A stretch of DNA of 64,000 nucleotides from NCBI GenBank assembly GCA_001661245.1, contig KV454016.1, positions 1-64,000 of the forward strand, in the 5' to 3' direction. A model generated the notes under the pieces. It did no database searches, was not told the origin of the DNA, and saw only the letters and a program-made list of their open reading frames with translations. Positions 929-29,511 of the stretch are shown here, in pieces. Made by a program: the position numbers and the translations under genes. How positions within the stretch are numbered: position 1 is the stretch's first letter; the number at the start of each line of letters is the position of its first letter. This DNA comes from Pachysolen tannophilus NRRL Y-2460. Its lineage: Eukaryota.

Positions 929-2548
929 CTAAAATAGTTTATCTTTCTCGAATGTGGCCTCTGTTTCCGCCCATTGACCTCTAACTAGATCTTCTTTGCT
1001 TTTACTTCTAACGGTAAATTTAGCCTTAAACGGTTCGTGTCTTGCTACAATACCACCAGAAATAGCCAAAGGATTTACTGGTATTTCATTACCTTCACTA
1101 TCGGTAGCATGGGAGATCTCAAAGGTCCACAAGATTCGGGCCATAGCCAAGAACAAACTTCTTTCAGCTAAATGCATTCCTGGACAAATTCTACGACCTG
1201 CTCCAAATGTGAAATGATCTCTCAAGTTAGCATCGCTGAGTGCTGCAGATTCTCCAGCTCTCAATGAATCATTTACATATCGCTCAGGCTTGAATTCCCG
1301 TGGCTTAGGATATCTTTTCTCGTCGTGGTTGAGAGTCCAGACATTATTTATGACATGAGCGCCCGCTGGTATCCAATAACCCATGTATTCATCGTCCTTA
1401 TTTGCTGAATGAGGAGCAATACCCATAATACTAGTAGGCATCCATCTGAGTGTCTCTTTTTCAACCCACCTAATATACTGAAGATTTTCTTCGTCATCCA
1501 TTGTAGGCATTCGATCAGGTCCTACAACACGGTCAACTTCTTCTCTGGCAATTTTCTGGACCTCTGGAAAACAAACCATAGCCATAATAAAACCTACAAG
1601 GACACCAGCTGTAGTATCGGATCCAGCCTCTAAGAGAGTACCAGATATATAACAGGCTAGATCGTCCGAAAATCCCAATTTTTTTTGACTTTCAAGCATA
1701 TCAGCACAAAAGCAGGGACCAACCTTTCCTTCCTTTATAGCTTCCCTGCAGTTAACCATATAGCTCATATACAAAGCTTTCTCTTCTTTGTGTAATTCTT
1801 TAGCTTGCCTAGCAGACGGGTTCAAGAAATCTGGCACATATCTGAGAATTGGAAAGTAGTCCATTAATGAATGACTGATTTGAGAAGCAACAGCAAACTT
1901 CTCAAAACCTTCAAAAATCTGCGAAACCTTTGGATCTTCATAAAGAGGAGATCTCCATCCAAAAACCAATTGAGTCGTGAGACTAGTCGAGTAACGACGA
2001 AGATGTTTATGAAAATCATCGGGATTATTAAGCAAATCCACCATCATCTGTCTATTCTCTTGTTCTTGGTAAGGAATATATTTTACAGCTGCCTTAATGT
2101 TTAGCAACTTATGAATCATCTTTCTTGCCATTCTCCAAGTGTCGTTGTAAGGTAAAAAGACAAATCTCAAGCCTCCAGAAATGAGATCCTGACCAACGTA
2201 TATTTCAGGACGAGAAGAGTATATTGTACTTTTTTTATCCAAAAGTTCTTTAATAGCATCGGGACTATTGAGAACGATCACAACTTTTGTACCCAAGATC
2301 AATGAGTATATAGGTCCGTAGGTTTTTGCCCATTCTTGAAACTTTAGGTGCACATTCTTCTTCGGAATTTGAAGAAAATTACCAAAGATCGGAACAGTTG
2401 GCGGACCTGGTGGAAGTCGTGGGTTCCTCTTTCCTATCTGCAAAATCTCATAGATTGTAAAGAGCACGAACAAAATTAACAGAGCATACGAAACATATTC
2501 AAAACTATCGCCTAACAATTTCGAATGTTCTAACATTGATTTCAACAT
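929..2548 (-). CDS. Cytochrome P450, CYP64-like fungal group (includes aromatic/cresol hydroxylases)
   Basis: N-terminal TM anchor, LPPGPP hinge, I-helix EAGSDTT, ETLR, PERY, heme motif FGAGRRICPG. Confidence 0.95.
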   Translation of the reverse strand: MLKSMLEHSKLLGDSFEYVSYALLILFVLFTIYEILQIGKRNPRLPPGPPTVPIFGNFLQIPKKNVHLKFQEWAKTYGPIYSLILGTKVVIVLNSPDAIKELLDKKSTIYSSRPEIYVGQDLISGGLRFVFLPYNDTWRMARKMIHKLLNIKAAVKYIPYQEQENRQMMVDLLNNPDDFHKHLRRYSTSLTTQLVFGWRSPLYEDPKVSQIFEGFEKFAVASQISHSLMDYFPILRYVPDFLNPSARQAKELHKEEKALYMSYMVNCREAIKEGKVGPCFCADMLESQKKLGFSDDLACYISGTLLEAGSDTTAGVLVGFIMAMVCFPEVQKIAREEVDRVVGPDRMPTMDDEENLQYIRWVEKETLRWMPTSIMGIAPHSANKDDEYMGYWIPAGAHVINNVWTLNHDEKRYPKPREFKPERYVNDSLRAGESAALSDANLRDHFTFGAGRRICPGMHLAERSLFLAMARILWTFEISHATDSEGNEIPVNPLAISGGIVARHEPFKAKFTVRSKSKEDLVRGQWAETEATFEKDKLF

Positions 2549-3077
2549 TTTCTAGAGATAATTTTATGACCAACAATCCTGCTCTGTTACTCAATAACTA
2601 AATAAAACTGCATATCATGATTCTTATATCTGCGTTTTCTCAAATGCATAAAAATCTTATCGAACTAAGATAGGAACCTACAATGCATATTATCGATTTT
2701 ATCTGGAATTAAAAAAGATATTGAACTCCCCACTTAACAAAGATAGGGTTCCAATTTAAAAGAAAGGTTCAGCTATATAAAAAAAAAGTATTACTAATTC
2801 GCACCTTCACTAAACAAAATAGGAGCCACTCAACAGCATTCGGTCTCAAATTATAAAACATATTGAACCTGCTCCCCACTCAAAATAGATAAGGACAATA
2901 AATCCAAACAAGTTTTAAATATATGGAAGAATATTATCAAATTAAATCTTCGATAAAAATAATCAAAAACCTAAAGAACCTAAAAAAACACACAAAAAAT
3001 AAAAACCTCCGTAGCCAGCTACAAGTTGACCCATTAAGTTGTAAACCAAAAAATAATATAATATATATATATATTTA

Positions 3078-4136
3078 TTATTTATTAGACTTCTTAAACG
3101 CATAACTCATTTTGCTTAAGTAATGTTCACCTGCAACAATGTTATCATACTTTTTAGGCCTTGATTCAGTAATACATGAAGGCAAGGTCTTCATAACTAC
3201 TTCGTAGTCAGCACCAAAAAAAAATGGAATTGAGTATCTTTCCGTACCAGATCTATTAATGGCTCTGTGCAAAGTAGACAAAAATACGTTGTTAGTCCAA
3301 ATTGATAATGCATCTCCAATATTAACGACAAAAGTACCTGGTATAGGTGTTGCAGGAACCCAGATACCATCTCCAGAAACAACTTCAAGAGAGTTAACAC
3401 TGTCGTCTTGCCTTAAGATGGTAAATAATTCATGGTCAGTATGAGGAAAAATTGCGGTATTTGCATCTGGATTATCGGCAACTTGAGCTGCATAATAGTT
3501 CAAAGCCAACAAACTACCTGGATGAGTAACTTTGTCATCAAAAAAGCTCTCGTCAAGGTTAAGAGCTAGAGCAAAAATTCTAATTAATTTTCTGCTCAAG
3601 GTGAGCATTTGAGAGAAATACTCACTGACACAGGGCTTGAATTCAGGCAATACATCCTGTGGTGGCCATTGGTTGTTTGCATCAAACTTTTCTCCTGTTT
3701 CTTTGCCAAATTCCTTATCATACTTAGCTTCACGACCAAACAACAAACTCTCATAACTGTGAGGTCTCTTTCCCTCTTTTTCATTCAAAGCTTCATATGG
3801 GGCATAACCAAGAAAATATTCATTATTTTTTCTATCGATCTTCAATTTCTCCTGAATTGGAACCTTTTTGAAAAAGTCATCTGCATTTTTTCTAACATTT
3901 TTGACTAGCTCGTCACTTATGCCATGATTTTTAATGTAAAAAAAACCTACTTCGGTGCAGGCCTTGTAAACATCTTCAGCTACCTTCTTCCTCTTGGAGT
4001 AGTCTTCACTCTCAAGATCAGTAAGATCAATAATTGGAAGTTGTCTGAATGGAACATTTCCTTCAGGTTCTTTGACCTTACGAATGCCCATCTCTGGACC
4101 AAGATCGACGACTTGTGTTTCAACTTCTGTACTCAT
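3078..4136 (-). CDS. 2-oxoglutarate/Fe(II) dioxygenase (IPNS/DIOX_N family)
   Basis: LPIIDL and GFFYIKNHGI N-terminal motifs; HTD...H iron triad; RYS 2OG-binding motif. Confidence 0.93.
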   Translation of the reverse strand: MSTEVETQVVDLGPEMGIRKVKEPEGNVPFRQLPIIDLTDLESEDYSKRKKVAEDVYKACTEVGFFYIKNHGISDELVKNVRKNADDFFKKVPIQEKLKIDRKNNEYFLGYAPYEALNEKEGKRPHSYESLLFGREAKYDKEFGKETGEKFDANNQWPPQDVLPEFKPCVSEYFSQMLTLSRKLIRIFALALNLDESFFDDKVTHPGSLLALNYYAAQVADNPDANTAIFPHTDHELFTILRQDDSVNSLEVVSGDGIWVPATPIPGTFVVNIGDALSIWTNNVFLSTLHRAINRSGTERYSIPFFFGADYEVVMKTLPSCITESRPKKYDNIVAGEHYLSKMSYAFKKSNK

Positions 4137-4721
4137 TTTTAGATGAACTTATATTGTTTTTCTCAATAGCGATTATAAACTTTTAACTGTTATTATTTGA
4201 ATTACACTGAAGTATTCAACGTTCTAAGTTTTCTCTTAAATATCCATTTCCATCTTACATTATTGACGTTGTCTTTTCTAATCTATCTTAATGATAATCT
4301 TGATAGGCCATTAATGTGAAGAGGGGTGGTTATGGATCTCTCAAGGGTGGACTCGCAGGTCTATTGCGTCCACTCAAAGAATTTTTCGGGGCCCTTAGTA
4401 GTACAATTCATTACCCACTTTAAAATTGTTCGAGTCATCGTAAACGATTATCAACATCAGTAGGCAAACCTTCATAATGAACTAAATACGACTAATTTTT
4501 AGAAGAGGATCTTGAGATGATTATCTACGGCCAAATCTATTAATAATTATTAGGTCAAAATTGCAACATTTATTTGTAACAAAAACAAAACTCTACTAGT
4601 TTCTTAAATCTTGGAATAATAAACGGTAACTGAGCCTACTGATAAAAATTATCCATTAAAAATCGCAATATGTAATGAAACAAAAAAGTTGTTAATTATC
4701 GCCAATGAAAGGGCAACATAA

Positions 4722-6245
4722 CTACCTACCTACATACTTAAGTTCAATCCATCTTACCAGAAGATGGCCAATAAAGCTCATTGCCAAGGATATAGGAAAT
4801 GCAACATCTCCAGGATAAACACTGCTTATGTCCTTTGCAATTGGACCTGTCCAGTATGTTTCATTCATTCCAACAGTAGCTCCTCCTACACCACACGCAA
4901 AGGCAAATATAGCAGCATATCCCACAGGAAGCTTAGCCTTATTTTCATATTCATGTGCCTCATACCCTGTCTGACGCTTGTAAATGAAATGCTCAGACAA
5001 AAAAATTCCTAGGTAAATAGCAACAAAATACGAAATAAGACCCATAAAATTTTCCATAAAATCAGAAAATTTGTAAAAACACGGAATGCTAACACCCAAA
5101 GCAATACCATTAGCCAGAAGTGTCCACAAAAGTCTAGGAACTAGTTTGAATTTTGGCCATACTGCTTGAGCGGAAAGCGACGAAGAATAAGAGCATGCAA
5201 CATTAGCGGAAGTTAATGATAATGCTAAAAGAACAACACAAAATCCTCCAAAGCCATGCAACGACTTATGGACTAATATTGCAAACGTCAACCCAGCTGC
5301 ACTTTGAGTCTCGTAGTAATAAGCATAATCCGTATTGTTATACATACATACTGCTGCTGCTACTCCAATAATTTGAGTAAAAACAAGTGAGAATATCGTT
5401 CCACTAGTAACATACCAAAATATTTTATGTTTAGAACTTGTCTTTTTCATATACACTGAATAGTCACATCCATAAAGAGTCCAACCAGCAGCATTTCCGA
5501 ATATATCCGCACCGTACGTTAAAACCATTCCTGCTTCAGCTCTCCCAGTAGCCATGGTACCGGTGGAAAAAGATCCTGACATCGTGATTCTAGCGATAAG
5601 AACAAATGATATGATGAAAACAGGAACCCAACTGTACAGTTCAAACTTATGAATAAAATCGTAACCGAGTAAAGATATAACAGTGCTGCAAGCCGACATT
5701 ATAAGAATGGCAGCCCAAGGAGGAAGAGCACCATTACCCAATGTATGAAGGAGTCCTGCACCGGCGACATTGTTGAGAATTTCCCAACCTATACAAATAA
5801 CAGCATTAATTGAGGCAAAAATTTTGACTCCCTGATATCCTACCCAATACCTAGACAACACCATTTGTCTTAAGCCAAATTCTGGACCAAAAGTTGACAT
5901 AAGTCCAACCGGTAAAACACCAATAGCGTTGAAAAATATGATAACAAGGACCGAATCCCAAAACAGTAAACCAAAAGTTGCAGGTCCACTCATTCCTATA
6001 CTAAAGCCTAAATAGATCATGTTTATAGATGAAAATACAAAAGCAATACTATGTTCCTTCTGATCCGTCCTCTGATGCTCTTCTATTCTCTGTACACCAG
6101 TTTCTTCTGCCCCCGATTGGTAGAGAACTTTTTCAACAACAGATTGTTTTCTTTTCTTAATGGAGGATTCTGAATACTCCTCAACATCACCATTGGTGAG
6201 CGAGGCTACACTCTGCAATACCACTTGTTTTTCAATATCAGTCAT
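4722..6245 (-). CDS. NCS1 purine-cytosine/vitamin permease (FCY2/TPN1 family)
   Basis: About 12 TM segments; GPEFGLRQMVLSRYW and LPVGYAAIFAF motifs; first ATG at 6245. Confidence 0.9.
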   Translation of the reverse strand: MTDIEKQVVLQSVASLTNGDVEEYSESSIKKRKQSVVEKVLYQSGAEETGVQRIEEHQRTDQKEHSIAFVFSSINMIYLGFSIGMSGPATFGLLFWDSVLVIIFFNAIGVLPVGLMSTFGPEFGLRQMVLSRYWVGYQGVKIFASINAVICIGWEILNNVAGAGLLHTLGNGALPPWAAILIMSACSTVISLLGYDFIHKFELYSWVPVFIISFVLIARITMSGSFSTGTMATGRAEAGMVLTYGADIFGNAAGWTLYGCDYSVYMKKTSSKHKIFWYVTSGTIFSLVFTQIIGVAAAVCMYNNTDYAYYYETQSAAGLTFAILVHKSLHGFGGFCVVLLALSLTSANVACSYSSSLSAQAVWPKFKLVPRLLWTLLANGIALGVSIPCFYKFSDFMENFMGLISYFVAIYLGIFLSEHFIYKRQTGYEAHEYENKAKLPVGYAAIFAFACGVGGATVGMNETYWTGPIAKDISSVYPGDVAFPISLAMSFIGHLLVRWIELKYVGR

Positions 6246-6886
6246 ACTATCTTTCAACTCTACCAAAAAGTATATATAGAATAATACACTATATTCTTTT
6301 ATTTAAAAAATACCGATCAACAGCGTAGATAGAACTCTTATATTGTTTTTGTTTGTAATAATATCTCATCAAATATTGTTTGATTGCATTGGAGATAAGC
6401 TCTACATCTTCAGACATATTGAAATAAAACTGTATACAATAACCAGCTAAAAAGCACGTTGAGATTCTTATCGTAATGCAGAATCTTTCGTCCCCACGTA
6501 TTGAACGTTTGCAGGCATAATCTAATCTTCAGTGGACATATTCCCACTTTAGTTTCTATGTTTTCGTCCATGCATCCATTTTTCTCAATCAATGCGTTTA
6601 GTATTTGATAGAAGTCTCTATACTGTCTCTGTCCGTTTTTACTTATTGGTCTTATGAATGTCAGTGGACTGCGTGATATCTGACTAATTGTTTACGCTAG
6701 ATCTTAAAGTAATATACTCTCCAAAAAAAGCACATTATATACTACAACTTTTCAGCTACCCATAGAACGGTTAAACAATTAATTTCCTTCGTTTACTTCC
6801 GACTACATACTTTTTGAATAATGGAATCTACTAAATTTAACTAATTATATTCACCTGTATATCAGGTTTCTAAATTACTATAGATA

Positions 6887-7867
6887 TTACTTATCGAAAT
6901 AATTCATTTCAAGTCCTTTAACACCAGGCTCATACTTGAACAAGTGTCCTCCCCAATCGGTTTTTTGCTTACTCAGTGCATCAAAGGCACTAGTAATGTA
7001 GAGAATATCATTATTCAGACCTCCCCAAGTAAGGGAAGAAATGTATTTGGTATTAAATCTAATAGTTTTCTGTAATTTTCCGTTGGAATTAAATATCATT
7101 ATTGAACCTATATTCCACATAGCAACCCATATATTACCTTCTATATCGATGGTCATTCCATCTGGTTGGCCGCCATCTTTGGTTGTATCAGCAAAAATTC
7201 GTTTCTTAGCTATTGTTGAATTTTTAAGATCAAAGTCATAAGCATATATTGCATGACGTCCCGAATCATTTAAATACATAGTATTATTATCTGGACTCCA
7301 AGCTATGCCATTACCACAAATCAATCCATCATCCATCATTTTCAACGTTCCATCGGGCAGATATCTCCATAATCTCCCAAGAGGCTTTCCGTAGCCATCT
7401 GGTAAATTTTCTCCATACGAATAAGCTTTTCTGTCAATCTCTGCGATCCAAAAATTACCATTGCAGTCAATACCTCCGTCATTAAGCCTTCTGATCCTCT
7501 TATCTTCTTTTGGTATGATCTCTCTTAATATTTGTAACTTCCCTGTACCTTCATCCAAAAACGCAATGCCTTGATAATACAGACATAATAATGAACCAGG
7601 TACATTCTTTCGAAAGCGCAGAACCGTGACACTGTCTTCTAGATTAACCACCCGATGTTTGATTACATGTTCTTCATTATTCTCAGTTGGATCTAAATTC
7701 AAAATATGCAATTGTGGAGGATCACTGGAAATATCAAAGTAATATAAACTGTTGTTTGTTTTTCTATAAATTGGACCTTCTCCCAATACACAAGGTTTAT
7801 CCAATACGTAAAACGGCTCCTTGATTTCCATTTCTTGAGCTTCAAAAGGAGTTCTCTGGTTATCCAT
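6887..7867 (-). CDS. SMP-30/gluconolactonase/regucalcin-family lactonase
   Basis: LGEGP, RLNDGGID, GNGIAWSPD, PDGMTID beta-propeller motifs; ATG at 7867. Confidence 0.9.
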   Translation of the reverse strand: MDNQRTPFEAQEMEIKEPFYVLDKPCVLGEGPIYRKTNNSLYYFDISSDPPQLHILNLDPTENNEEHVIKHRVVNLEDSVTVLRFRKNVPGSLLCLYYQGIAFLDEGTGKLQILREIIPKEDKRIRRLNDGGIDCNGNFWIAEIDRKAYSYGENLPDGYGKPLGRLWRYLPDGTLKMMDDGLICGNGIAWSPDNNTMYLNDSGRHAIYAYDFDLKNSTIAKKRIFADTTKDGGQPDGMTIDIEGNIWVAMWNIGSIMIFNSNGKLQKTIRFNTKYISSLTWGGLNNDILYITSAFDALSKQKTDWGGHLFKYEPGVKGLEMNYFDK

Positions 7868-8896
7868 TGTTAACTTTACTTCCAAATCAAACAACACCTT
7901 ACTTTTTGGCAATTGAGTGGAACTTAATAACCATATCAAGTGGTTCTTATAATTAATATTTTCTTGAGTGATAGCATTAAGTTGTTAGCTTTTTATCCAC
8001 AACGTGGGGGAAGTGGAAACATTAGAGTATGCACTTTAGCTGTAGCCCTGTATGGAAGTAAGAAAATTGTATTAAAACCAATTTTGTTTAGAAAGAAACA
8101 AGAGTTCTTACAGTCAGCTCTTCCCATAAACTAAACTTACAACTTCATAGTTTCATCAAGGAAATTGCGGTCGCCGTTACGTTATCTATATTATGGCCTT
8201 TATCAGTACAATAACTTATATCATTTGCCAAGATTATCTATGATTATAAGTGGACAATATAGAAAGATTAACTCCATGTTTTAGAGGCTACAATCATTGC
8301 ACACTGACCACATTAACTGTTGTTTCTTTAAAAAAAAATCTCAATAAAATCTCATACACCAATTAAGATTTAAATTTAATGATAGTTACACCCCCTTTCA
8401 TTTCCCCTACCACATACACAATCGATACACATAGGTTCTCTTTTTTATTATAGCGGTGGTAATATTATAACTGTCAGAAAATACAACTTTCTATTGATAT
8501 CTGTTTCTTGTGACAAAAATTTTGAGACTGTACATTTTTTTTTAATCCACTGACTCTGATATGCTTAATAAATCATAGTAGATTAGGGATACAAGGGGAA
8601 AAATAAAATAGGATTTCAAAGATTTTTACTTAAAGAATATGGTTTTATATGACGAGATAAAATGAAACCAAATATTTTATATTTAGATATCTGAGGACAG
8701 TTATATCAAGTATCTTGAAAAATTTCAATTAAAAAAAACGAGAATTCTAGTCTGTATAGATGGATATTTTTATATTTATTCGATTCAACATTTATTATTT
8801 TTTGATTAAAAATTGATAGTAATTCTGAATATTCTAATAGGTAGAGTAATCATGATTCTTTTGAATCATTCTATAGTTTTCTATAAAAACGGATGA

Positions 8897-9782
8897 TTAC
8901 CATTTGGTGACACCCGCATCTACAATTATGTCTTCACCGCTCATATAGGAACTGGCATCACTTGCGAGAAACACGCAGGTACCCAGCATATCTTCAGGGT
9001 TTGCAACCTTCTTGTTCATACATACATCTTTCCATTCTTCAATTAATTCAGGAAATCCAGCAGTCATTTCTGTTCTCACGTATCCTGGACTTAAAGAATT
9101 AGCTCTTATACCGTACTTTTGTAATTCTGCCGAAATTGGAGCGACCATGGATCTCACAGCTCCTTTAGTACCACAATAGGCAGAACTTCTTTGAGATCTA
9201 ATTGCAATATAGCTCCCCATACTACAAATAAAAACTATACTTCCCTTCTTGGTTCCATTTTTAATCATTTGCTTTGCAGCTAACTGAGCTGTAAAATAAG
9301 AACCTCTAAAATTTACATTGCATAGACGATTGAATTTATCATAAGAAGTTTCCAAAAATTCGATATTTTCGTTAATGCCAGCACAGGGAACACAAATATC
9401 GATCTTTCCTTCAAAATCTTGAACAAATTTTTGAAATGCGGTTTCCAAACTTTGTTGATCCGACACATCAACACTTTAAATTATTAGAATTTTTCTTATA
9501 TTCATTCAAAACATAAGAAAGTACTTACATATAATTTCTCACCTTAACACTGTATTTAGCTTCAAGTTCTTTTGTGTCTTTGATTGGAACTAATAAATCG
9601 AAAATTCCAACATCGCAACCTGATTCCATAAGGGCTTCAGCGCATGCAAAACCGATGCCTCTTCCTCCTCCTGAAACTAGAGCTGTTCTTCCAGAAATAT
9701 CAAACTATTCTATGTTAGTAAAGTATTCATGCAAACCCGTTATAAAAATTGAGAAAAAGTTACTTACTTTATTAAATACCAT
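8897..9782 (-). CDS. Short-chain dehydrogenase/reductase (polyol/sorbose reductase-like); 3 exons 9782-9768, 9704-9529, 9473-8897
   Basis: Splicing two GTAAGT..AG introns (63 and 55 nt) gives MVFNKFDISGRTALVSGGGRGIG...; catalytic YCGTK; NSLSPGY. Confidence 0.9.
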
Positions 9783-10429
9783 TTAATATTAGTGCTGTCT
9801 TTAATTAAGTATAATATAATTATCGATTGCCAAAACATATCATGTTCTTCCCATTTATATAAGCTGAATCTTGAAGTAGTTTTACGTGGACAAGGAAATA
9901 TTATATCTGTTGATCGGGAAGAGAGACCTTGATTGTAAATAAGAAATCACTCTGATAGGCCGAATATAAAAAGTTCATACGCAGTACAAATCATGTTAAT
10001 GCATAGTTTCATGCAGAAGATTCATAGAGACCAACATTTTCAATTGTTACCAGATAGTAGTTGATGATAATATTTGAGGCGAAAAGGAATATTCTTCTTA
10101 ATTAAAATTACGATGATAAATCAAAACTTTTTATTCCTCATTGGAAAGACAAGTTGAATACTCTGAAGACAAGAAGCTAGTGAAGATTACGAGGCTTTAT
10201 AGATGATATATATAGACGTGTCTTATGTTCGCATGGACTCAAACCGTTCTGTCGACCATTCTGAAATGCATTTACTTAGGTGGGGACCTGCTTTCTTTTT
10301 TTGAGTGCCCACATATGATAAGATTTTTCGTTCCCTTTTACTTGACTATAAAAACCGGCCAAGTTGTATCGATAATGGGAACGATGGTACTTTGATCTAA
10401 AGATAATTTTTAGTCTTGACTAAAAAAAG

Positions 10430-11710
10430 ATGAAAATTATTATTGTTGGCGCTGGTTTGGGTGGTTTAAGTGCTGGAATTGCTTTAAAACAAGCGGGTCA
10501 CGATGTAATTGTTTTAGAAGCGGCACATGAGATTGCTGAAGTCGGTGCGGGAATTCAAATTTTGCCAAATGCCAGTAAAATATTGACTGAGTTTGGATTG
10601 AGGCCTATATTGGAAAAATTTGCAGGTTCTCCCAAAATGTGTTATATCAATGGTTGGAAAGGTAACACCATTACGGGCCTTGATTTTGAAAAACAAGGGG
10701 AAGTAATGGGATCGCCTTTCTGGGATTTCCACAGAGCAGACTTACATGGTGGTATGCTTCAGAAGTTTAAAGAATTGGGCGGTGAGACAATTGTTAATTG
10801 CAGAATTGATGATATTTTGTATGATGAATCCAAATTAGAAGCCACTGCTATTTCTTCTACAGGTGAAAGGTACATTGCAGACTTAATTGTTGGTGCAGAT
10901 GGTGTAAATTCCAAATTGAGAGAACTTTTAGTTGGACATAGTGATCCACCAACGAGAACCGGTGACTTAGCTTTTAGAATATTAATAAAAACTGAAGATG
11001 CAATGAAGTACCCGGAACTAGCTGACTTTGTCAACAATCCTCAAGTTAATTACTGGATTGGTCCTCAATGTCATTGTGTCAACTACGTTATCAAGCAGAA
11101 ACAATTTATCAACTTTGTTCTTCTTTGTCCAGATACAGTTCCTGAAGGAATGAATATTTCACCTGCCAGTGTCGAAGAAATAAAGAACATTTTCAAGGAT
11201 TGGGACGAAAGACTTCTTAAGATGATGGACCTCGTTGATAACAAAACAATCTACAAATGGAGATTGTGTTTCAGACCTGGAATTGAAAGTTGGTATCATG
11301 AAAATGGAATGTTTTGTTTATTGGGAGATTCTGTCCATGCCACATTGCCATATTTGGCATCTGGTGCAGGTATGTGTATTGAAGATGGATGTGTCTTGGG
11401 TCATTTGTTGAAAATGTATCCCGATAAGCGTGATCTTAAAACTGCTCTTAAAATTTACCAAGCTTGCAGGAAAGATAGAACTGAAAGAATTGTATCTAGA
11501 GGAAACTTACAGCAATATCTATACCACTTGGACGATGGTGAGGAGCAAGAAGAAAGAGACAGAATTCTAAGACTTCCTGATCCTCCTGCTGGAGAAGCAT
11601 TTGTTTGGAGAGATAAAGAATTGGCCCCTTGGCTTTTGAAATACGATGCTATGAAAGATATTCAAGATAAAATATTCGCACTTAAATCCGGTTCGGCCTT
11701 GCATGTATAG
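10430..11710 (+). CDS. FAD-dependent aromatic monooxygenase (salicylate hydroxylase-like, group A)
   Basis: GAGLGG, VGADG and LLGDSVHATLPYLASGA fingerprints. Confidence 0.93.
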   Translation: MKIIIVGAGLGGLSAGIALKQAGHDVIVLEAAHEIAEVGAGIQILPNASKILTEFGLRPILEKFAGSPKMCYINGWKGNTITGLDFEKQGEVMGSPFWDFHRADLHGGMLQKFKELGGETIVNCRIDDILYDESKLEATAISSTGERYIADLIVGADGVNSKLRELLVGHSDPPTRTGDLAFRILIKTEDAMKYPELADFVNNPQVNYWIGPQCHCVNYVIKQKQFINFVLLCPDTVPEGMNISPASVEEIKNIFKDWDERLLKMMDLVDNKTIYKWRLCFRPGIESWYHENGMFCLLGDSVHATLPYLASGAGMCIEDGCVLGHLLKMYPDKRDLKTALKIYQACRKDRTERIVSRGNLQQYLYHLDDGEEQEERDRILRLPDPPAGEAFVWRDKELAPWLLKYDAMKDIQDKIFALKSGSALHV

Positions 11711-12153
11711 CCTAAAAGTAAATAATATTTTTTGTTTGATTTTTTTCTTTAGAAATATATAATACTAAAATATCTACTATTATCAGAACATAATATTCTT
11801 CTATCTTGTCCCGAATGCCGACATCAGATCAAGTATCATCTTTACCGGTATACCAATGGCAGTATGGTTTTTAGCGATACAAGATTACCGATTGCTTTTA
11901 CTATATCATACCACTTTGAAGTTATGGAATTTAAATCACCTTGATATGGGTAGTATTGATTGAAATCTGTCCGCAGGATGAATACGTCCACGCATTGATG
12001 GATTTTCTTACATGGGGACGTTACGTTAAGTTTATCTTAAACTTCATCCAGTACTTGCAGAGCCGATAAAGAAACAACTATAAAGATGTTATGTTTTGTT
12101 CCTAAAAAAAAAGAAACCTGAAGCTTCTACTATCATGTTGAAGTTGTAAGAAA

Positions 12154-17515: not shown

Positions 17516-17730
17516 CTCAATTATTCAATTGATATTAATATAACAACCCAATTTCACAAGTAAAATTATTTTTAATATATTTTATTTCTTCGAGCGGAAC
17601 TTTAGGGTAATAATTATATGCAACCTGTATGTAATACTTGCTCATTTCAAAGTCCACGAAAATTCATATCTTTAATACTTAAAAGAGTGGACTAAAAGTA
17701 CTTTTGGACATAAATAATAATTATCGAGAA

Positions 17731-18402
17731 ATGTTGTTGTATCTGAAGAACTGCAATGGTTTATTTGCTAAGGGTATGCCATTTTTTTTGTTGCAAAAGC
17801 GTATGTTGAGTAGCTTACAAGAGTCTACAAGAAGAAAAAGAATCATTGTAGCAATGACAGGTGCATCAGGATCTATATATGGAATTAGAATTTTAGAGAC
17901 ATTGAAGAAAATGGGGATTGAAAGTCATCTTATTATGAGCAAATGGGCAGTGGCAACAATCAAATATGAGACTGATTATAGGATTGAAGACATTGTTGCA
18001 ATGGCAGATTATTTTCATGGGAACCAAGAAATGTCAGCAACTATATCAAGTGGTTCTTTTGTAACGGATGGGATGATAATAGCACCTTGTAGTCTGAAAT
18101 CACTAGCAGCTATTAGAACTGGACTTTGCTCAGATTTGATTAGTAGAGCTGCCGATGTTATAATTAAGGAAAATAGGAAGTTGGTTTTAATGGTTAGAGA
18201 GACTCCGTTAAGCCCTATACACTTGGATAATATGACCTATTTGTCACGGATTGGAGTGACCGTTTTCCCTCCTGTACCCGCCTTTTATGTTCGTCCTAAT
18301 TCTATAGATGATCTTGTCGAGCATACTGTTGGAAGGGTTTTAGACCAATTCAATCTTGATACTCTGAAGTTTGAACGTTGGAAAGGCTCTTTAAAAAAAT
18401 AG
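17731..18402 (+). CDS. PAD1: Flavin prenyltransferase (UbiX family)
   Basis: RIIVAMTGASG, SSGS, RAADV, RETPL, FPPVPAFY; first ATG 17731. Confidence 0.95.
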   Translation: MLLYLKNCNGLFAKGMPFFLLQKRMLSSLQESTRRKRIIVAMTGASGSIYGIRILETLKKMGIESHLIMSKWAVATIKYETDYRIEDIVAMADYFHGNQEMSATISSGSFVTDGMIIAPCSLKSLAAIRTGLCSDLISRAADVIIKENRKLVLMVRETPLSPIHLDNMTYLSRIGVTVFPPVPAFYVRPNSIDDLVEHTVGRVLDQFNLDTLKFERWKGSLKK

Positions 18403-18994
18403 TTGAGAATAAAATAAAGCATCAATTTAAAAGTTCTTTTTCTTTTTTTTTTTTTTTTTTTTCTTCTTCCATGGCTATTGATACTCAATTGATTGTTTGA
18501 AGGAATGTTTATAGACTGCTGATATTACTTTTTATGCTGGTTCATATCCACTAGATATTTTTTTTTCTAACTGAAAAAAATCAAAATCAATTACGTTGCG
18601 TTTACACTTTCTAAATATTAATCATTTAAGAGGCCAAAAGATAATGAATGAGATACAAAGTTTTTCGTGTTATCGATTAAAGAATTACTCGATAAGCGTC
18701 GATAATTCTCATCATAGATCATATTTTTTTTTTTTTTATTTTATATATATAAGTCAACAACTTGCTTGTTGTATTTCATAAGTATTTAGCTTATACGTTA
18801 CGTGAATTATTTTCTTGAATTCTCAAAATATAAGAGTTTTTCTAAAAATCCATATATATATTCTCATAATCCGTCCTTTGATACGGATAATTCTATCTGT
18901 AAATTGTGTACTCAAACATAAATAATCAGTTCAAATCTATAAAGATTGAAAATGTAAAGCTTTACTTGTCTAATCTTTTCAAACACAAAATCAG

Positions 18995-20593
18995 TCATAC
19001 AGTTTCTATGCGTTGTTCACGATACTTCTCATCAAGTTCAAGAGCTCTGTGACCACCCCGAGCCTTCCTTTCAGAAGCTAATGTCTGTGCAAATTTTGAC
19101 TTTTCACGAATTACTTCACCTTTCCAATAAAATACATATATTGGTGTAGTTACTGCAAAAGCCATACAGGCAAGAATTGTTGACGGATATTCCAATGTAT
19201 ATGTCTTGAAATATTCATAAAATGGAGTAGAATAGATAGATGCAAGTCCAGCCAAAAAATCTCTAGCAAGCGCATTTCCTCCTGTAGCGGAAGCGGAATA
19301 AGGACCATAACTAGCAATCATATAATCAATAGTGGCCATATATATTGAATAATTGGCCAGTCCAACTAAAGTCGAAAATATCATGGGAGCAATCCAATGA
19401 ACACGAGGTGGTCCTAAACTTGTCCAGGAAAATCCAAACAAGCCTATTGTTTCCAAAGGTGCCATGAACAATAGCCACCAAAGCCGTTCTTCTGGGACAA
19501 AAGCATCGGGGTCTCTATGAATTAGCTTCTGTTGCGAATATATAACAGGAATAAAACTGAGATAAGCAAGAAGATAGCCAATAATCAAAGGTATCAACGC
19601 AAGACTAGTGTCAATGACGGTAAAATTCCATTGGGCATAAACCAAAGTATATGAATCAAGAAATGTAAAAATAAGCGCATCACTAAAACCACTCAAGAGA
19701 GAGAGACAAAGAACAATTGGTTCCCGAGCAAACATTATAAAAGGACGAGTCCAGATTGCAAATATTTCTTTTGTGTTAAGAGATTTATTAGATAACTCTC
19801 CTGGACCATAAACATTTTCTTCTCCTGCTTTCCGCCTTCTCTTGGCTTCACGTTTAAGCATGATGGTTGATCGTGTTTCTGGAACAACAAAAAAATGTAT
19901 AGCTTGAACTGCTCCACCAAAGATGAGTTGAATCCAAAAATTCCAATGCCAAGACAAAAATGTCTCAATAAAACCACCAACTAACCCTCCAACAACTGAC
20001 CCACCAACAGATGAAAGAACAACATAAGCAGTCGCATATTGTTGATCATTTGGTTCCCACATATCAGCTACCATCCCCAAAGTTACAGAACCTCCTGCAG
20101 ATGAAAGTCCTCCTAATGCACGACATACAACAAGTGTTCCATAATTAGGAGCTAAAGCACAAGGAATTTGCCAGATATTAACTAGAAAAAGACTCATTTG
20201 TAAAATAATCCAACGTCCATACTCTTCACTCCAAGGTGCCCAAAGTTCACTACCAAATGCATATAACACAAGAAATGTTAATTCAGGAACACGCGCGGCT
20301 TGTTCAGAAACATTAAAATGTTCGCTTAACTGAGTAACTGCATTCGCATATACACTTGTGTTAAAATTCATAGATACCTGAACAATAAATATCACTGAAA
20401 GTATGGTCCATTTTTTTATTGTTGAAAAGCTATAACCAAGAGCTTCATAATTGTCGGTTTCTTGAATCTCATATTTTCCATCTTCGCGAGCTTGTTCAGG
20501 AATATTGGAATTATTCGAAGCAGAACTCTTCTCTCCATCATTATCTGAGGTAGAGTTTGGATTTACTCTATAAATAAGTCTACTTTGATCCAT
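18995..20593 (-). CDS. MFS drug:H+ antiporter (DHA1-like)
   Basis: 12-TM pattern; WAPWSEEYGR, PETR, PEERL, YSASATGGN motifs. Confidence 0.92.
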   Translation of the reverse strand: MDQSRLIYRVNPNSTSDNDGEKSSASNNSNIPEQAREDGKYEIQETDNYEALGYSFSTIKKWTILSVIFIVQVSMNFNTSVYANAVTQLSEHFNVSEQAARVPELTFLVLYAFGSELWAPWSEEYGRWIILQMSLFLVNIWQIPCALAPNYGTLVVCRALGGLSSAGGSVTLGMVADMWEPNDQQYATAYVVLSSVGGSVVGGLVGGFIETFLSWHWNFWIQLIFGGAVQAIHFFVVPETRSTIMLKREAKRRRKAGEENVYGPGELSNKSLNTKEIFAIWTRPFIMFAREPIVLCLSLLSGFSDALIFTFLDSYTLVYAQWNFTVIDTSLALIPLIIGYLLAYLSFIPVIYSQQKLIHRDPDAFVPEERLWWLLFMAPLETIGLFGFSWTSLGPPRVHWIAPMIFSTLVGLANYSIYMATIDYMIASYGPYSASATGGNALARDFLAGLASIYSTPFYEYFKTYTLEYPSTILACMAFAVTTPIYVFYWKGEVIREKSKFAQTLASERKARGGHRALELDEKYREQRIETV

Positions 20594-21703
20594 AATGTTG
20601 TATATCTATAAAGATTCTTTTAACTGAGCCCGTTAAATTTCGTATCTGGTATTACATTATTAGGAAAGTTTTCCATACTTATATTCTTATAAAGATATTT
20701 ACATAAAAAGAGATGAATAGATAGTAATAAGATAGCAATGATTAAATAAAGTGATTATATAATTTTACTCAATTGATCATAATTTTAAATAGAGATGGAA
20801 ACTATAATTTTTTGGTATTTCTGTATAGTTTCTTCATTGCTTGCTGTAGCTAGGCGTAGTTTAAGGTGCTTGCGGATGTAAACCTCAAATTTTGGTGCGC
20901 ATCTTACAATTTTTCCGAATGGAGAAAGTCTATTTTATTTGTAAATGTGAGATCATAGCACATATACATCATAGTTGATGCAATTTCTATGTAATCGAGA
21001 TGTTAATTAAAACGTATCAACTCCACAAGAAAACAAGGGAATCTACTTAATATGTATGGTTCTATTATGAATCCATGCACAAGGATGGTTTATAAAATTA
21101 AACTATATGAAAAAAATCACACTTATTTGCAAGTAACAGTCGTACTAGGATAAATGTTCCTACTGTAGATGGACCTCTTTACGTTGACGTTATTCAAAAC
21201 TGAAAACGTTCAAACAATCTTAAAACTATTTCTAACAGAAATTTGCAAATAAAAATCTTTCATTGCTAATTTACAGAAAAAAAAAAAAAAACATCATACT
21301 TTAAGTATTTTAAAGTGGAAAACATGACTAAGTCAAAACTGAGAATCAATATTCAACTTCAAGAATACACTTATTTGGAAGAAGAACAAATTGTAGATAC
21401 TTCACATAACATAACATCTTTCAAGATTTTTTGAAATTTGTATATATCCAAACCTATCTAACAATTGCTGGCTTTACGTTTGAAAAATAGGGGTATTATT
21501 GATTAATACCAGAAGGTAAACTACTGCAAGATTATGTATAATCTGCGGCTTTCTTTTAAGTGGGGAGGTGTCCACACTGATTGTCCACAGTAAAAATGGA
21601 ATGGCTTTTTCTGCGAGACCTATTTATATATATATATATATATATATACTGGAGTTTTTCTTAAAATTGTTTTCAAACCTCTGTTTTGCCGTATACTAAA
21701 CAA

Positions 21704-22903
21704 ATGGCCACTCATATGAATGATACATCAACTATGTTTGAATCTTTTAAACTTGGTTCTTCAACGCTTTCCCATAGGGTAGCTTTGGCACCCTGCACCA
21801 GAATGAGGGCTGAAAAAGCTGGTGATTTTTACGTTCCAGGTGATTTAATGGTTGAATACTATACTCAAAGGGCAACAGCTGGTGGGCTTTTAATTACCGA
21901 TGCTTGTCCAATTTCTGAAACAGCTTGCGGCTATTTGGGAGTTGCTGGAATTTTCAATTCAGAACAAGTTAGCGGGTGGAAAAGAGTCACTGATGCTGTT
22001 CACAGTAAAGGAGGTATTATTTATTGTCAATTGTGGCATGTGGGTAGAGCTACTGTTGCTCAACTTATAAAAGGAACTCAACCAATTTCTTCTGTGTCTA
22101 CTGCTTTGGAAGGTGATTCTTTATTTCCAGGAGTCTCATATAGAGATGCTCCACCAAGAGCTATGATTAAGGATGATTTCATTGAAGTGACAAATGATTT
22201 TGTAAAAGCTGCAAAAGTTGCTATTGAAAAGGCTGGTTTTGATGGTGTAGAGATTCATGGTGCAAATGGTTATCTTCTTGATCAATTTCTCCATGATAAT
22301 GTCAACACTAGAACTGACACGTATGGAGGTAAATCAATAAAAAACCGTGCAAGATTTCCTTTGGAAGTTCTTAAATCAGTTTGTACCGAAATTGGTGCCG
22401 AAAAGACAGCTATTCGCCTTTCACCTTTTAACTACTTTCAGGATACAAGAGACTCAGATCCAAATGCTACTTGGTCTTATGTTTGTCAAGAAATTGTTAA
22501 TTTAGATGAGCCAATTGCTTATGTTCATATGATTGAGCCTAGATTTGATGAAAAGCTAAATGCTGAAGATAAAATCAAATCTTTAGAAGAGCAGGTAGGT
22601 AAAGCCGAAGGTTTTTCATTGAATGGATTTAGGTCCATTTTAAAAAATAAAAATATTTCATTTATTGCAGCTGGTGGGTTTTCAAAAGAAACTGCTTTGA
22701 AAAAACTAGAAGCTGGTGATGCGGATGTAATTGCTTTTGGTAGACACTTTATTGCAAATCCAGATCTTGTCGAGAGATTTAAACTGGATCTCCCATTGAA
22801 CAAGTATGATAGACCAAGTTTTTATGGCTCAGATCCTCCTAAAAATGGTTATACTACTTATCCAACTTATGCAAATTCACAATTAAACGGTAAAGCTCAT
22901 TAA
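21704..22903 (+). CDS. Old yellow enzyme (NADH:flavin oxidoreductase/ene-reductase)
   Basis: APCTRMRA, YYTQRA, QLWHVGR, EIHGANGYLLDQF, FGRHFIANPDL. Confidence 0.93.
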   Translation: MATHMNDTSTMFESFKLGSSTLSHRVALAPCTRMRAEKAGDFYVPGDLMVEYYTQRATAGGLLITDACPISETACGYLGVAGIFNSEQVSGWKRVTDAVHSKGGIIYCQLWHVGRATVAQLIKGTQPISSVSTALEGDSLFPGVSYRDAPPRAMIKDDFIEVTNDFVKAAKVAIEKAGFDGVEIHGANGYLLDQFLHDNVNTRTDTYGGKSIKNRARFPLEVLKSVCTEIGAEKTAIRLSPFNYFQDTRDSDPNATWSYVCQEIVNLDEPIAYVHMIEPRFDEKLNAEDKIKSLEEQVGKAEGFSLNGFRSILKNKNISFIAAGGFSKETALKKLEAGDADVIAFGRHFIANPDLVERFKLDLPLNKYDRPSFYGSDPPKNGYTTYPTYANSQLNGKAH

Positions 22904-23811
22904 TTTACATGATAACGCGCAGTTCTAGAAAATATACAAAATATCTTAATAGAAATCAAAGAAAAATTATATATATGTATATATATATATAACCGATAAA
23001 TTTGAAACTTCAATTTAGAAATTACCCCTACTTTACCTTTTACTTGTAGTTTTATTATATAATTATATTAAATTTTGAACTAAAAAATTTAGATGTAAGA
23101 GTTCTTTGCTTAAAAGTGGATTGTAAGATGTTCTAATGGTTAAACATTTTTTTCTAACTCCTGTATTCTATAGTAATTATAATATATATTATTACCTCTG
23201 GAAATCAAAGTACAATGGATTTATGATCTCTTAATCTCATCAGTCTAGCGTGGACACATTTATGCAACTAACTAAAAAAGGAATATGAATTCTGAAATCA
23301 CTCTAGGGTCTTTAATCCCGAGATCTCTGAAAACGAAAATACTTTCATAACATCTATACAGTAATAACATAAGTTTGCCAAAATCGTAGCCGAGAATATT
23401 TAAAAAACTATATAGAATTATTTACAAATCTCTAATGATTTTTTGTAGAAGACCCTTTTTATATCATAATATAAATACAGTCCAGGTTTGTTTCTTACCT
23501 AACTTTCTTTCTGTTTCCATCGAAGTTAACACTTCACTGTAGGAAATTTCTCTAGTGGAATGCCTATTCTGAAATGCTAAGGTAAAAATAGCTGACATTC
23601 TGATCTTTTGAGAGGTGCCTTAGGTGTCTTACCCACCGTCCACCATCAATGAGTATGGACAAATGTTATCGGCCAAAGAAATATGTATGCACATATTACG
23701 TAATCCGAAAAATGTAAAGAAAGAATTCTTATAAATGATAAGAAACCAGCTACAGTTCTGTTTTCATTGTGATAAGAATAAATTCAATTATTGTAGTTTA
23801 TAGTTGTGGTT

Positions 23812-24964
23812 ATGGGGAAGAAAAGTAAGGGGACTTTATTTGATTTAAAAAATTTGAGTTGGGGATTCCATAATACTAATTGAGTCATATAGGAGTTTTG
23901 TGTTGTTATGGTGTCGATATTGATGCTGTGTCAGGTTGGCTAGGTTCTTATGGTGGTGCAGATTCAGTCAACGATATTTCAAGAGGTATGTATATTTTCT
24001 TTTGCGTAGAAGAGAGTAATGGAATTTTTTTTTATACTGACATAATGTTCAAAGGTTTATTTGCTGGCCATGTTGGTGTTCCAAGAATGTTAAAAATGTT
24101 TGATAAGTACCAGATCAAGGCTACTTGGTTTGTCCCCGGTCATTCTTTAGAAACATTCCCCGAAGAATGTGCTGTTATTAGAGATAAGGGACATGAATTG
24201 TAAGTATTTGTGAATATGTGACAATTCTAAGAGTTTGATACTAACTAATCAATTTGAATTTTTTTGAAAGTGGTCTCCATGGATATTCGCATGAGAATCC
24301 AGCTGATATGACTCTTGAACAACAGAGAGATGTTTTAGATAAGACTTTTAGACTTATCACAGAGTTTTGTGGTAAACCACCCAAAGGTTCTGTTGCACCG
24401 TGGTGGGAAACATCAGTTGAAGGTACCGAAATGCTTCTAAGTTACGGTATCGAATATGATCATTCAATGTCTCACCACGATTGCAAAGCATACTGGTTAA
24501 GAACAGGTGATTCTTGGAAAAAAATTGATTATTCCAAGAGGGCAAAAGAGTGGATGGAACCTTTGATTAGAGGAAAAGAAATTGGCCTTGTAGAAATTCC
24601 TGGTAACTGGTATATAGATGATCTTCCACCTATGATGTTCATCAAAAATAATCCAGATTCTTATGGATGGGCAAATCCAAGAGATATTGAAGATATTTGG
24701 AGAGATCATTTTGATTATTTCTATAGGGAATATGATGAATTCATTTTCCCGATAACTTGTCATCCTGATGTTTCTGGTAGACCTCATGTTCTTTTAATGC
24801 ATGAAAGACTTATTGAACATATTAATAAACACGAAGGTGTTGAATGGGTTACCATGGGTGAGCTTTCAGATGATTTCAAAAAGAAAAATCCTCCTCCCCC
24901 TGGTGCATTAATGCCAACTTCAACCGAAGAAGTATTGAAAAGATTGAACATTAATTTGTCATAA
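23812..24964 (+). CDS. CE4 polysaccharide-deacetylase-fold hydrolase (PuuE/HpPgdA-like); introns 23825-23892, 23986-24054, 24200-24270
   Basis: Spliced [23 protein letters not shown]...ATWFVPGH...[10 protein letters not shown]...APWWE...[12 protein letters not shown] introns with branch sites; no signal peptide. Confidence 0.9.
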
Positions 24965-25238
24965 ATATATAGTTATTGGTGTATGTTGATAATATTATTC
25001 ACATGCAACTATATGCATGTCCACTTAAAATGTACCTAGAAGTTTGATTGAAATTTACTTAACCTACTTTATTAAACTGCTACTCATTTGTGATGTAAAG
25101 GAAAATAAAAGACTTAATCCTGATGTCATTAAAGAAAACTGTATTTAATTTCTCTATTCACCATTACTATCTTTTCCTAAAAAAAAAAAAATTTTAAAGC
25201 TCAAGTTGCTCATATGCTGTTGATAGGTAAGATAAAGA

Positions 25239-25680
25239 ACTTATGACCAAATTTGATCATTTCATCAAGATTAATATTGAAGAATAGTCTCAAACCTGGA
25301 AATTAGCTTCCATAAAGGAATCTAAAAGTAAATTTTTTTAAAAAAAAAAACGTAGGCCATACTGTATCTATCTATTAGAATCATAAGTATAGTTTGTATT
25401 CCCCATTAGATTTCGGTGTATTACTTACTATCTACAGGCTTCCAAAAAAAAAAAAAAGACAAAAAAAAAAGCAGAGTACCAGCTCGATGCTCTCGCCAAC
25501 TACAGATCCAGCTCTACAAGACCCAGTTGCATCGGAACACAAGTTTCTAAACTACTCTCATAATTAGATGAAGATCGGGAAAGCTTACCTATGAACAACG
25601 AAGTTGGTTAAGCCGAAGATATGCGCGCAACGCTTGTGCTTTTCTTGCAAATGATCCTGGTAGTTAATTACATGAACAAC
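25239..25680 (+). pseudogene. Decayed SDR pseudogene fragment, paralogous to the SDR at 8897-9782
   Basis: Broken frames read YDKFDHFIKIN..T.KLA, GHTVSIY, PSCIGTQ, MNNEVG*AEDM, ACAFLANDPGS.YM, colinear with YDKFNRLCNVN..TAQLA, GSIVFIC, PGYVRTE, MNKKVANPEDM, TCVFLASDASSYM of the intact SDR. Confidence 0.6.
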
Positions 25681-25951
25681 GATAAAATCACTTTACTCAT
25701 ACTGATATGACCAAATAACATGTGAAACAATTTCTTTATGAGTTCGAGTCAATGCTCTACCATGATTATTAATATCTTGATATCTTAAATATTTGTATGC
25801 TCGTTAATAAGCAATGTAAAGTTTTCTTTGGATGCAACGGCGATTGCCCACCTAAAAAAAAAAAATTTCCCCACGCGAAATGTGGTATAACTGGCCGAGA
25901 AGTCCACTTCTTTGATAGTACGGTATTGATTAAATTGTAATTGTAATCAAG

Positions 25952-28725: not shown

Positions 28726-28851
28726 CAGTATTAAATTAAATAGTTTTTAAGAAATTTCACTTTCTCGAATAATAATATATGAAGGACTATTTATAATTCA
28801 GTTTTAAATCTTGTTATCTAAGTAAATCATTCAATATAATTTCATCAGGCC

Positions 28852-29511
28852 ATGTCATCGAGCAATTCAGTATCAGATAAAGCGCTTTTGAAGAATTCAA
28901 GCCTATTACAATCGGCAACAACTCATAAGTTAACTACAGAATTATCTAAAGGCACTTTAAAGGACAAGATTTTACTAGTTTATTTGGTGCAGGATTATAA
29001 ATTTTCAGGAATGTTTCTCAAGATGATAGGTAAGGCTTTATCATTATGTGATAATTATCAGTCAGCAATAACTTTAGGGAAGCAACTTGGGCTTATCTGC
29101 AACGATGAAAATGATTATTTTGAATCAACTATAGAGCAACTTTCTAAATCGATTAAAGTGAACGATGATGTATTGCCCACCGTGAAAAAATACCTTGATT
29201 ACATGCTAAAATTATCGAAAAGTGAATCATATTCAGAAATTATCTCTTCATTATATATTATGGAATTGGTTTATTTGAAGTGGGCTGAAGATGCTGAGAA
29301 TCATAATAATACTCTTGAATTACTTGAATATAAACATAAGGAGTGGATTGATTTACATAGAGGAAAAGCTTTTGAAATATGGGTTGAATTCTTAAAGAAA
29401 GAAGTAGATAGACATCCAGAAGAATCTGATAAAATCTTTGAATCTGTTCGAATTACTTTAAATTTTGAACTTGAGTTCTTTGATGAAACTTACCAAGTTG
29501 GTTCAACATAA
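28852..29511 (+). CDS. PET18: TenA/THI-4 family protein (Pet18/TenA_E-like)
   Basis: H.LT.EL..GTL, YLVQD, ENDYF, ELVYLKW, EWIDLH, LELEFFD. Confidence 0.8.
   Translation: MSSSNSVSDKALLKNSSLLQSATTHKLTTELSKGTLKDKILLVYLVQDYKFSGMFLKMIGKALSLCDNYQSAITLGKQLGLICNDENDYFESTIEQLSKSIKVNDDVLPTVKKYLDYMLKLSKSESYSEIISSLYIMELVYLKWAEDAENHNNTLELLEYKHKEWIDLHRGKAFEIWVEFLKKEVDRHPEESDKIFESVRITLNFELEFFDETYQVGST

Follow-up and report, generated by a model that had tools for sequence, protein, structure and literature searches.

A subtelomeric hxn-type 6-hydroxynicotinate cluster of Pachysolen tannophilus, probably enlarged by eight genes that share its promoter words

The first 64,000 nucleotides of contig KV454016.1 of the budding yeast Pachysolen tannophilus NRRL Y-2460 (assembly GCA_001661245.1; this whole 64-kb stretch is called the window here) carry 15 genes at positions 929-29511, which an initial annotation, made from the letters alone, had read as a pathway for plant phenolics or phytoalexins with a transcription factor of its own. 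We find that the locus probably (roughly 0.62) represents the budding-yeast hxn pathway for pyridine rings, enlarged by eight extra genes under the same control. There is very little doubt that six of the genes, namely hxnW, hxnX, hxnV, hxnT, hxnM and the regulator hxnR, form the core of a 6-hydroxynicotinate cluster. All 15 genes are present, their Pfam families agree with the labels given before, and the proposed metabolic cluster with its own regulator, which is of the hxnR type, stands. The core is already known, because an hxn cluster of P. tannophilus is listed in PMC8478523 (papers given by PMC number are cited for the portions of their text available to us); what is new is the enlarged form of the hxn cluster, whose genes share promoter words.

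Introns are needed in four genes (hxnW, hxnV, hxnM and hxnR); once spliced, their models contain no internal stop, and the introns run GT..AG. The core genes are:

8897..9782, minus strand: hxnW, short-chain dehydrogenase/reductase (SDR), exons 9782-9768, 9704-9529 and 9473-8897, 255 amino acids, divergent from hxnX as in Aspergillus nidulans
10430..11710, plus strand: hxnX, 6-hydroxynicotinate 3-monooxygenase-type flavoprotein, 426 amino acids
12154..13985, plus strand: hxnV, phenol-hydroxylase-type 2,5-dihydroxypyridine monooxygenase, exons 12154-12215 and 12275-13985, 590 amino acids
21704..22903, plus strand: hxnT, old yellow enzyme (OYE, ene-reductase), 50-54% identical to clustered fungal OYEs
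23812..24964, plus strand: hxnM, CE4/HpPgdA-like cyclic imide hydrolase, exons 23812-23824, 23893-23985, 24055-24199 and 24271-24964, 314 amino acids
25952..28725, plus strand: hxnR, regulator with two C2H2 fingers and a fungal transcription factor domain (PF04082), exons 25952-26111 and 26171-28725, 904 amino acids

Synteny is a stronger test of hxn identity than active-site residues. When fungal metagenome loci were sought with an hxnX alignment, 142 related stretches were obtained; 80 of these were used, several repeating one organism and 45 being shorter than 10 kb. In these 80 hxnX loci we found homologues of the CE4 protein 28 times, of HxnV 25 times, of the SDR 18 times, of the regulator 15 times and of the OYE 12 times. 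Among 16 loci examined further, in which 81 of 121 candidate frames were scanned, molybdenum cofactor (Moco) hydroxylase domains occurred in five and an amidase in four, as expected for hxnS and hxnN. For the core, co-occurrence of homologues in fungal loci is supported. HxnW is 44-58% identical to 17 clustered SDRs, with one match at 27%, and HxnM is 57-79% identical to its homologues in 27 of 28 loci and 40% in one partial match (criterion >50%). Outside its fingers, HxnR shares 37-45% with clustered fungal regulators in 12 of the 14 loci with a match and 20% in the other two (criterion >30%); its finger helices and intron position agree with theirs as well. For HxnT the published criterion is a syntenic OYE of at least 40-45% identity. 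No Pfam family matched the 3' exon of the CE4 gene, but its best PDB match is Helicobacter pylori PgdA (3qbu, E 4e-89), and the domain architectures of HxnW, X, V, T, M and R agree with Table 1 of PMC8478523.

Active-site residues of the A. nidulans enzymes were taken from PMC9304392 and located in the window proteins by a constant offset. In HxnX seven of eight (Q59, V223, H232, V234, Y236, V247, L248, L249) were recovered at one offset, while the best of 2000 shuffles gave five; the same seven residues are present in 115 of 120 homologues, and an invariant Gln stands at position 43 of the window protein. For HxnT all three residues (H183, N186, Y372) were found at one offset in the cluster OYE, and not in the neighbouring one. 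HxnV showed four of six (D65, I126, K231, L243, I245, Y255) at offset 21 and the remaining two at offset 18. The S-Y-K spacing of A. nidulans HxnW (S147, Y162, K166; ~254 amino acids) is present, N119 is unmatched at the same offset, and the glycine motif reads SGGGRGIG instead of starting with TG. The closest named relatives of HxnX are proteins of Kuraishia, Candida boidinii and Wickerhamomyces (62-63%), and the yeast hxnX proteins form one clade (FastTree, 37 chosen rows). The C-terminus of HxnX is ALHV and lacks a canonical peroxisomal targeting signal (PTS1), whereas the A. nidulans enzyme carries the peroxisomal signal SRL (PMC9304392).

With the A. nidulans hxn regulon (PMC5746545, PMC8478523, PMC9304392) the locus has in common hxnX, V, T, W, M and R, the divergent hxnW-hxnX pair, which is confirmed in PMC13705651, predicted GHGGGG sites, and a hydrolytic ring opening without a ring-cleavage dioxygenase. 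In contrast to that regulon, it lacks hxnS, hxnN, hxnP and hxnZ within the cluster and a canonical PTS1 on HxnX, and it has eight extra genes and a second promoter word, GTGGAC. The absence of hxnS/Z/N is shared with the hxn clusters of 14 Saccharomycotina species, which always contain hxnR (PMC8478523). Since P. tannophilus is one of the 14, and is named there as the sole CUG-Ala species with an hxn cluster, the earlier remark that a cluster of this size and mix is not recognised from Saccharomycotina is not supported; our locus is almost certainly the cluster counted in that paper. The only added gene named among the yeasts in its main text is an amidase in Kregervanrija. This main text makes no mention of a P450, decarboxylase, permease or telomere, which Supplementary Fig. 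S5B might show, and in search listings we found no literature on the eight extras.

The extras are interleaved with the core genes and lie beside them:

929..2548, minus strand: cytochrome P450, two GTGGGG upstream (2733, 2879)
3078..4136, minus strand: 2-oxoglutarate (2OG)/Fe dioxygenase, two GTGGAC upstream, same domains as HxnY
4722..6245, minus strand: NCS1 (Fcy2-like) permease, one GTGGGG and two GTGGAC upstream
6887..7867, minus strand: SMP-30/regucalcin-type lactonase, GTGGGG and GTGGAC upstream
14276..15004, minus strand: PEP2/SnoaL_4 protein, GTGGGG upstream
15938..17515, minus strand: UbiD/Fdc1-family decarboxylase dependent on prenylated FMN, HudA-like Tyr and Trp pocket residues, the only UbiD found in the genome
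17731..18402, plus strand: UbiX/Pad1 flavin prenyltransferase, forming a divergent pair with UbiD whose common 215-bp promoter holds two GTGGAC
18995..20593, minus strand: MFS drug:H+ antiporter-type transporter, divergent from hxnT, promoter common to both

Two hexamers recur upstream of these genes and of the core. Their sites, listed without strand, fall in the 11 upstream intergenic regions within 2549..25951:

GTGGGG: 2733, 2879, 6497, 8004, 10280, 15221, 21560, 25874
GTGGAC: 4347, 4373, 6532, 6664, 8250, 9886, 11991, 17657, 17687, 21575, 21588, 23250, 23643, 25024, 25907

Each of the 11 cluster regions carries one or the other word, compared with 8 of 137 intergenic regions taken from 400 kb of other chromosome ends and interiors; in terms of sites, the 8.0 kb of cluster upstream DNA hold 23, and the 98.8 kb of intergenic DNA from elsewhere hold 8. 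GTGGGG was observed 8 times where 0.49 were expected, a count reached in none of 300 shuffles. For GHGGGG, the HxnR site predicted in PMC8478523, the figures are 9 against 1.34 (0/300 shuffles), and the 15 regions outside the cluster gave 2 with 1.76 expected. GTGGAC occurs in 9 of the 11 cluster regions and in none of the 15 outside, while the best GC-rich hexamer over 500 shuffles reached 7 of 11. Upstream of hxnV, hxnM and UbiD/UbiX GHGGGG is missing and GTGGAC is present. In a separate set of 137 upstream regions of fungal hxn homologues, GTGGGG ranked second in enrichment among hexamers, behind AGTGGG, with which it overlaps. GATA words are enriched inside and outside the cluster and are of little informative value. 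Judged from these words, the eight extras are rather likely to be regulated together with the core, and we infer control of 14 genes by HxnR. The co-regulation proposed before is therefore probable for these genes, and TenA, the last of the 15, probably drops out, as neither word precedes it.

The decarboxylase had been taken for a cinnamate-type Fdc1, acting with Pad1 on cinnamic, ferulic or sorbic acid. At the positions of Met283, Thr323, Ile327, Tyr394 and Thr395, which we take to be the pocket residues of Aspergillus niger Fdc1, the window UbiD has Tyr, Ser, Trp, Ile and Val. The Tyr and Trp at Met283 and Ile327 correspond to HudA (PA0254), the pyrrole-2-carboxylate decarboxylase of Pseudomonas aeruginosa, which likewise comes as a UbiD and UbiX pair. 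Of the HudA residues E278, Y279, E316, N318 and W322, the window protein keeps E278, Y279 and W322, with Asp for E316 and Ser for N318; the stretch EGPMGEYHGY is identical, and an adjoining Asn-His stands where HudA has His-Thr. The pocket thus appears to be of the HudA-like heteroaromatic and not of the cinnamate type, although overall the protein is nearer to A. niger Fdc1 than to HudA (504 vs 442 bits). It forms a small clade of its own with two proteins at 73-75%, all others being at most 50% identical (FastTree, 36 chosen rows). In the AlphaFold model the pocket loops have a confidence score (pLDDT) below 50, and the model was not used. Exact-word patterns, a search of low sensitivity, revealed no confirmed relative of the UbiD clade or of PEP2 in bacterial genomes, while a plasmid search did find relatives of PEP2. 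Both UbiD and UbiX begin with basic, acid-poor leaders resembling mitochondrial presequences (within 30 residues, 7 K/R and 1 D/E in UbiD, 4 K/R and 0 D/E in UbiX), and the two close UbiD relatives carry similar N-terminal extensions.

How substrate would enter the pathway has to be explained without the usual first enzyme. MoCoBD_1 gave no match in the genome, hence no Moco domain of the xanthine dehydrogenase type was found; Moco-synthesis genes are nevertheless present. The window contains no amidase, and six unlinked ones lie elsewhere in the genome. Two of these six have one GTGGAC within 800 bp and none has GTGGGG, so that a motif-bearing amidase standing in for HxnN is unpersuasive. The core steps were shown in A. 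nidulans (PMC9304392) and are carried over here by orthology. Accordingly named, HxnX would convert 6-hydroxynicotinate to 2,5-dihydroxypyridine, to which HxnV would add a hydroxyl group, giving 2,3,6-trihydroxypyridine. HxnT would then reduce the ring, HxnW would oxidise the product to 3-hydroxypiperidine-2,6-dione, and HxnM would open this imide to alpha-hydroxyglutaramate, from which one of the six unlinked amidases may release ammonium. HxnR would activate the genes through the predicted GTGGGG sites.

The extras would most likely serve as a replacement front end for the missing HxnS/P/Z entry. NCS1 might import a small N-heteroaromatic compound, which the P450, the 2OG dioxygenase and the lactonase could oxidise or trim, and UbiD with UbiX might remove a ring carboxyl group to yield 6-hydroxynicotinate or 2,5-dihydroxypyridine. 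PEP2 may handle the unstable trihydroxy intermediate, and the MFS transporter could export toxic intermediates. That the extras feed pyridine-type substrates into the core is a tentative idea. A bolder and rather doubtful version holds that the entrance to the pyridine pathway is independent of molybdenum, with a P450 probably acquired from a filamentous fungus (or the 2OG enzyme) replacing HxnS and the new-clade UbiD decarboxylating acids of the picolinate or quinolinate type, all within the HxnR regulon. If true, this would identify what the yeast clusters without hxnS naturally act on, and would assign PEP2 proteins a function on trihydroxy-aromatic intermediates. Fourteen yeasts keep hxn without its first enzyme (PMC8478523); eight extras with common promoter words offer a short list of candidate entry steps. 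Among these, a UbiD acting on pyridines or a P450 that hydroxylates nicotinate would, if real, be a useful biocatalyst.

The individual extras differ in their relatives. The P450 is 57% identical to a protein of the Dothideomycete Zalaria and groups among P450s of filamentous fungi (FastTree, 29 chosen rows), and a quick tree places NCS1, which is 100% identical to a named P. tannophilus protein, as sister to proteins of Paecilomyces and Exophiala. Within the rows chosen, this suggests acquisition of extras by gene transfer. Another P450, only ~30% identical to that of the window, adjoins an hxn cluster of filamentous fungi (locus L051, 454-1972; locus L067, 6302-6934). An assignment of the 2OG gene as hxnY could not be demonstrated, as its identity to the three clustered copies is 27-29% and a paralogue elsewhere in the genome reaches an equally good score. 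The MFS transporter is not HxnP or HxnZ because it has no match among the MFS genes of fungal hxn loci. Among 31 matching plasmid records, seven were opened, and in five of them (L083, L084, L085, L132, L133) bacterial PEP2-like NTF2 proteins share operons with genes for maleylacetate reductase and a ring-cleavage dioxygenase. Of the other two records, one lacked these genes and one was unannotated. A single literature search found no description of this link. Hydroxyquinol has its nitrogen analogue in 2,3,6-trihydroxypyridine, which may explain the position of PEP2 beside hxnV. PEP2 was also considered as the 'polyketide cyclase' of Rhodococcus/Arthrobacter that opens trihydroxypyridine (PMC9304392), but this was set aside, as none of the seven plasmid neighbourhoods was annotated as a pyridine cluster.

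Several observations weigh against an enlarged hxn pathway under common control. Homology of the core was judged against clustered fungal homologues in place of the A. nidulans Hxn sequences, and among the six unlinked amidases no HxnN orthologue was found (four are ~27-41% identical by segment to clustered amidases, one is 26% identical and one is unmatched). GTGGAC may belong to another factor, because it does not conform to the predicted GHGGGG and its enrichment upstream of fungal hxn genes is mild (51 vs 31 expected). GTGGGG presumably also fits Mig1/CreA- and Adr1-type sites. We found no pyridine-acting UbiD in the literature. Above all, the part of the synteny search concerned with the extras was largely negative: NCS1, SMP-30, PEP2, UbiD, UbiX and MFS matched in none of the 80 hxnX loci, and the P450 (two loci, ~30%) and the 2OG gene (six loci, 26-35%) matched weakly. 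These results fit a rival that we consider unlikely, in which the known hxn core is accompanied by unrelated subtelomeric passengers, some of them from filamentous fungi, and the words reflect general carbon or nitrogen control. Of ten top P450 relatives looked up, the eight that are named belong to Pezizomycotina, as do the named proteins closest to NCS1, and in Paecilomyces and Exophiala the locus tags of the latter are far from hxnX-like genes. Sporadic non-functional insertions in hxn clusters are reported in PMC8478523. Moreover, the GC content at third codon positions (GC3) is 0.29-0.34 in ten consecutive genes (929-18402), compared with a median of 0.22 and a 90th percentile of 0.28 in genome samples, which may reflect recent gain or an end-of-chromosome gradient. 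However, the words turn up in all 11 regions here but in just 6 of the 73 subtelomeric intergenic regions from elsewhere, and of eight other NCS1 genes a single one is preceded by either word, whereas the cluster copy has three sites. The interleaving with the core and the promoter common to MFS and hxnT likewise argue against mere passengers. If the extras were such, the locus would simply be a cluster already catalogued.

The plant-phenolic route favoured by the initial annotation, for example from 4-hydroxybenzoate or vanillate through hydroquinone to hydroxyquinol, hydroxycinnamates being the substrates of Fdc1/Pad1, now seems very unlikely. It can draw on the fact, which also counts against the hxn assignment, that the closest PDB structures of HxnX (8gsm, 8x38, 8r2t) are fungal 4-hydroxybenzoate/vanillate decarboxylating hydroxylases of the same fold family and type of chemistry. 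As these carry the same His and Tyr, the two residues alone are not diagnostic. However, they have 4-5 of the seven HxnX positions while the window protein has all seven, and HxnX scores 229-323 bits against phenolic hydroxylases compared with 449-665 bits against the hxnX clade, the two ranges coming from different databases. The plasmid neighbours of PEP2 homologues and the up-regulation of an Aspergillus terreus nicotinate cluster on salicylate (PMC7842363) would agree with phenolic substrates as well. Against this, the core is hxn by synteny and residues, the imide hydrolase requires a nitrogen ring, and HudA, which the UbiD pocket resembles, is inactive on cinnamate (PMC7976604). Furthermore, intradiol (PF00775) and gentisate (TIGR02272) dioxygenases had 0 matches each in the genome, in an assembly that may be incomplete and with extradiol and homogentisate types left unsearched; because neither was found, the ring should not be openable by intradiol or gentisate routes. 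Quite unlikely, too, is a division into two functions under one regulator, in which the core would degrade pyridines, and five-membered heteroaromatic acids such as 2-furoate or pyrrole-2-carboxylate would be detoxified by UbiD/UbiX and MFS, perhaps together with the P450 and the lactonase. The Ser at the HudA Asn318 position points this way, as HudA N318S converts furan- and thiophene-2-carboxylate better than the wild type (PMC7976604), and so does a UbiD/UbiX promoter with GTGGAC and without GTGGGG. Yet this transfers a single residue across ~45% identity, next to an Asn-His unlike the His-Thr of HudA and in pocket loops modelled with low confidence.

The cluster begins close to the chromosome end, as claimed before (about 660 bp): the distance from the telomere to the P450 stop is 665 bp. 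The flanking features are:

1..264, plus strand: 29 copies of the telomeric repeat CACACCACT, then TTTCCTAAA x3.7 at 265-297
28852..29511, plus strand: TenA/THI-4 family gene, upstream gap of 126 bp without cluster motif, no match in the 80 hxnX loci
29797-31047, converging with TenA: second OYE, adjoining the cluster, no GTGGGG or GTGGAC upstream

We regard the CACACCACT array as a telomere because the same repeat stands at the ends of four other contigs (C1, C2, C3, C4). TenA is a real gene that had been counted as a cluster member; it is probably a flanking gene outside the cluster, and the second OYE then follows it. The latter is of the ordinary yeast type, judging by its lower identity to clustered OYEs (28-37%, full-length matches). 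A further GTGGAC at 29556 lies between the converging ends of TenA and this OYE, in a gap that is not among the 15 outside regions. Ordinary genes start at 31818. Since contigs assembled from three runs of two studies carry the regulator together with TenA and the second OYE at even depth (one of these runs may be the source of the assembly), the cluster does not represent a stray contig; part of the stretch from 19.3 to 24.6 kb is without cover in two of the three runs. According to the alignments, P. tannophilus is a host that reads CUG as Ala: at one HxnV position CTG is aligned with Ala in 21 of 23 homologues, most other CTG positions being variable and uninformative, and the public copy of UbiD carries Ala at its CTG. 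Translations with table 1 are therefore wrong at CTG codons.

A second subtelomeric group of similar composition was noticed at ~1900-9450 on the minus strand of L096 (G000:C2:2173601-2183600). It comprises an NCS1 permease, a 2OG dioxygenase that is 32% identical to the one in the window, a gene with a fungal transcription factor domain and a frame that looks like an aldo-keto reductase, judged from its sequence without a family scan; the stretch has three GTGGGG and one GTGGAC. Within the window, a 154-codon frame at 36841-37305 runs across an 18-bp degenerate tandem repeat (CACGACTGTACATATTTA x8) and is probably no gene, while 48663-48787 is an intergenic tandem array of TGTCACTTTTTTC units. 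A gene of the RraA-like aldolase family lies at 47637-48368 among housekeeping genes.

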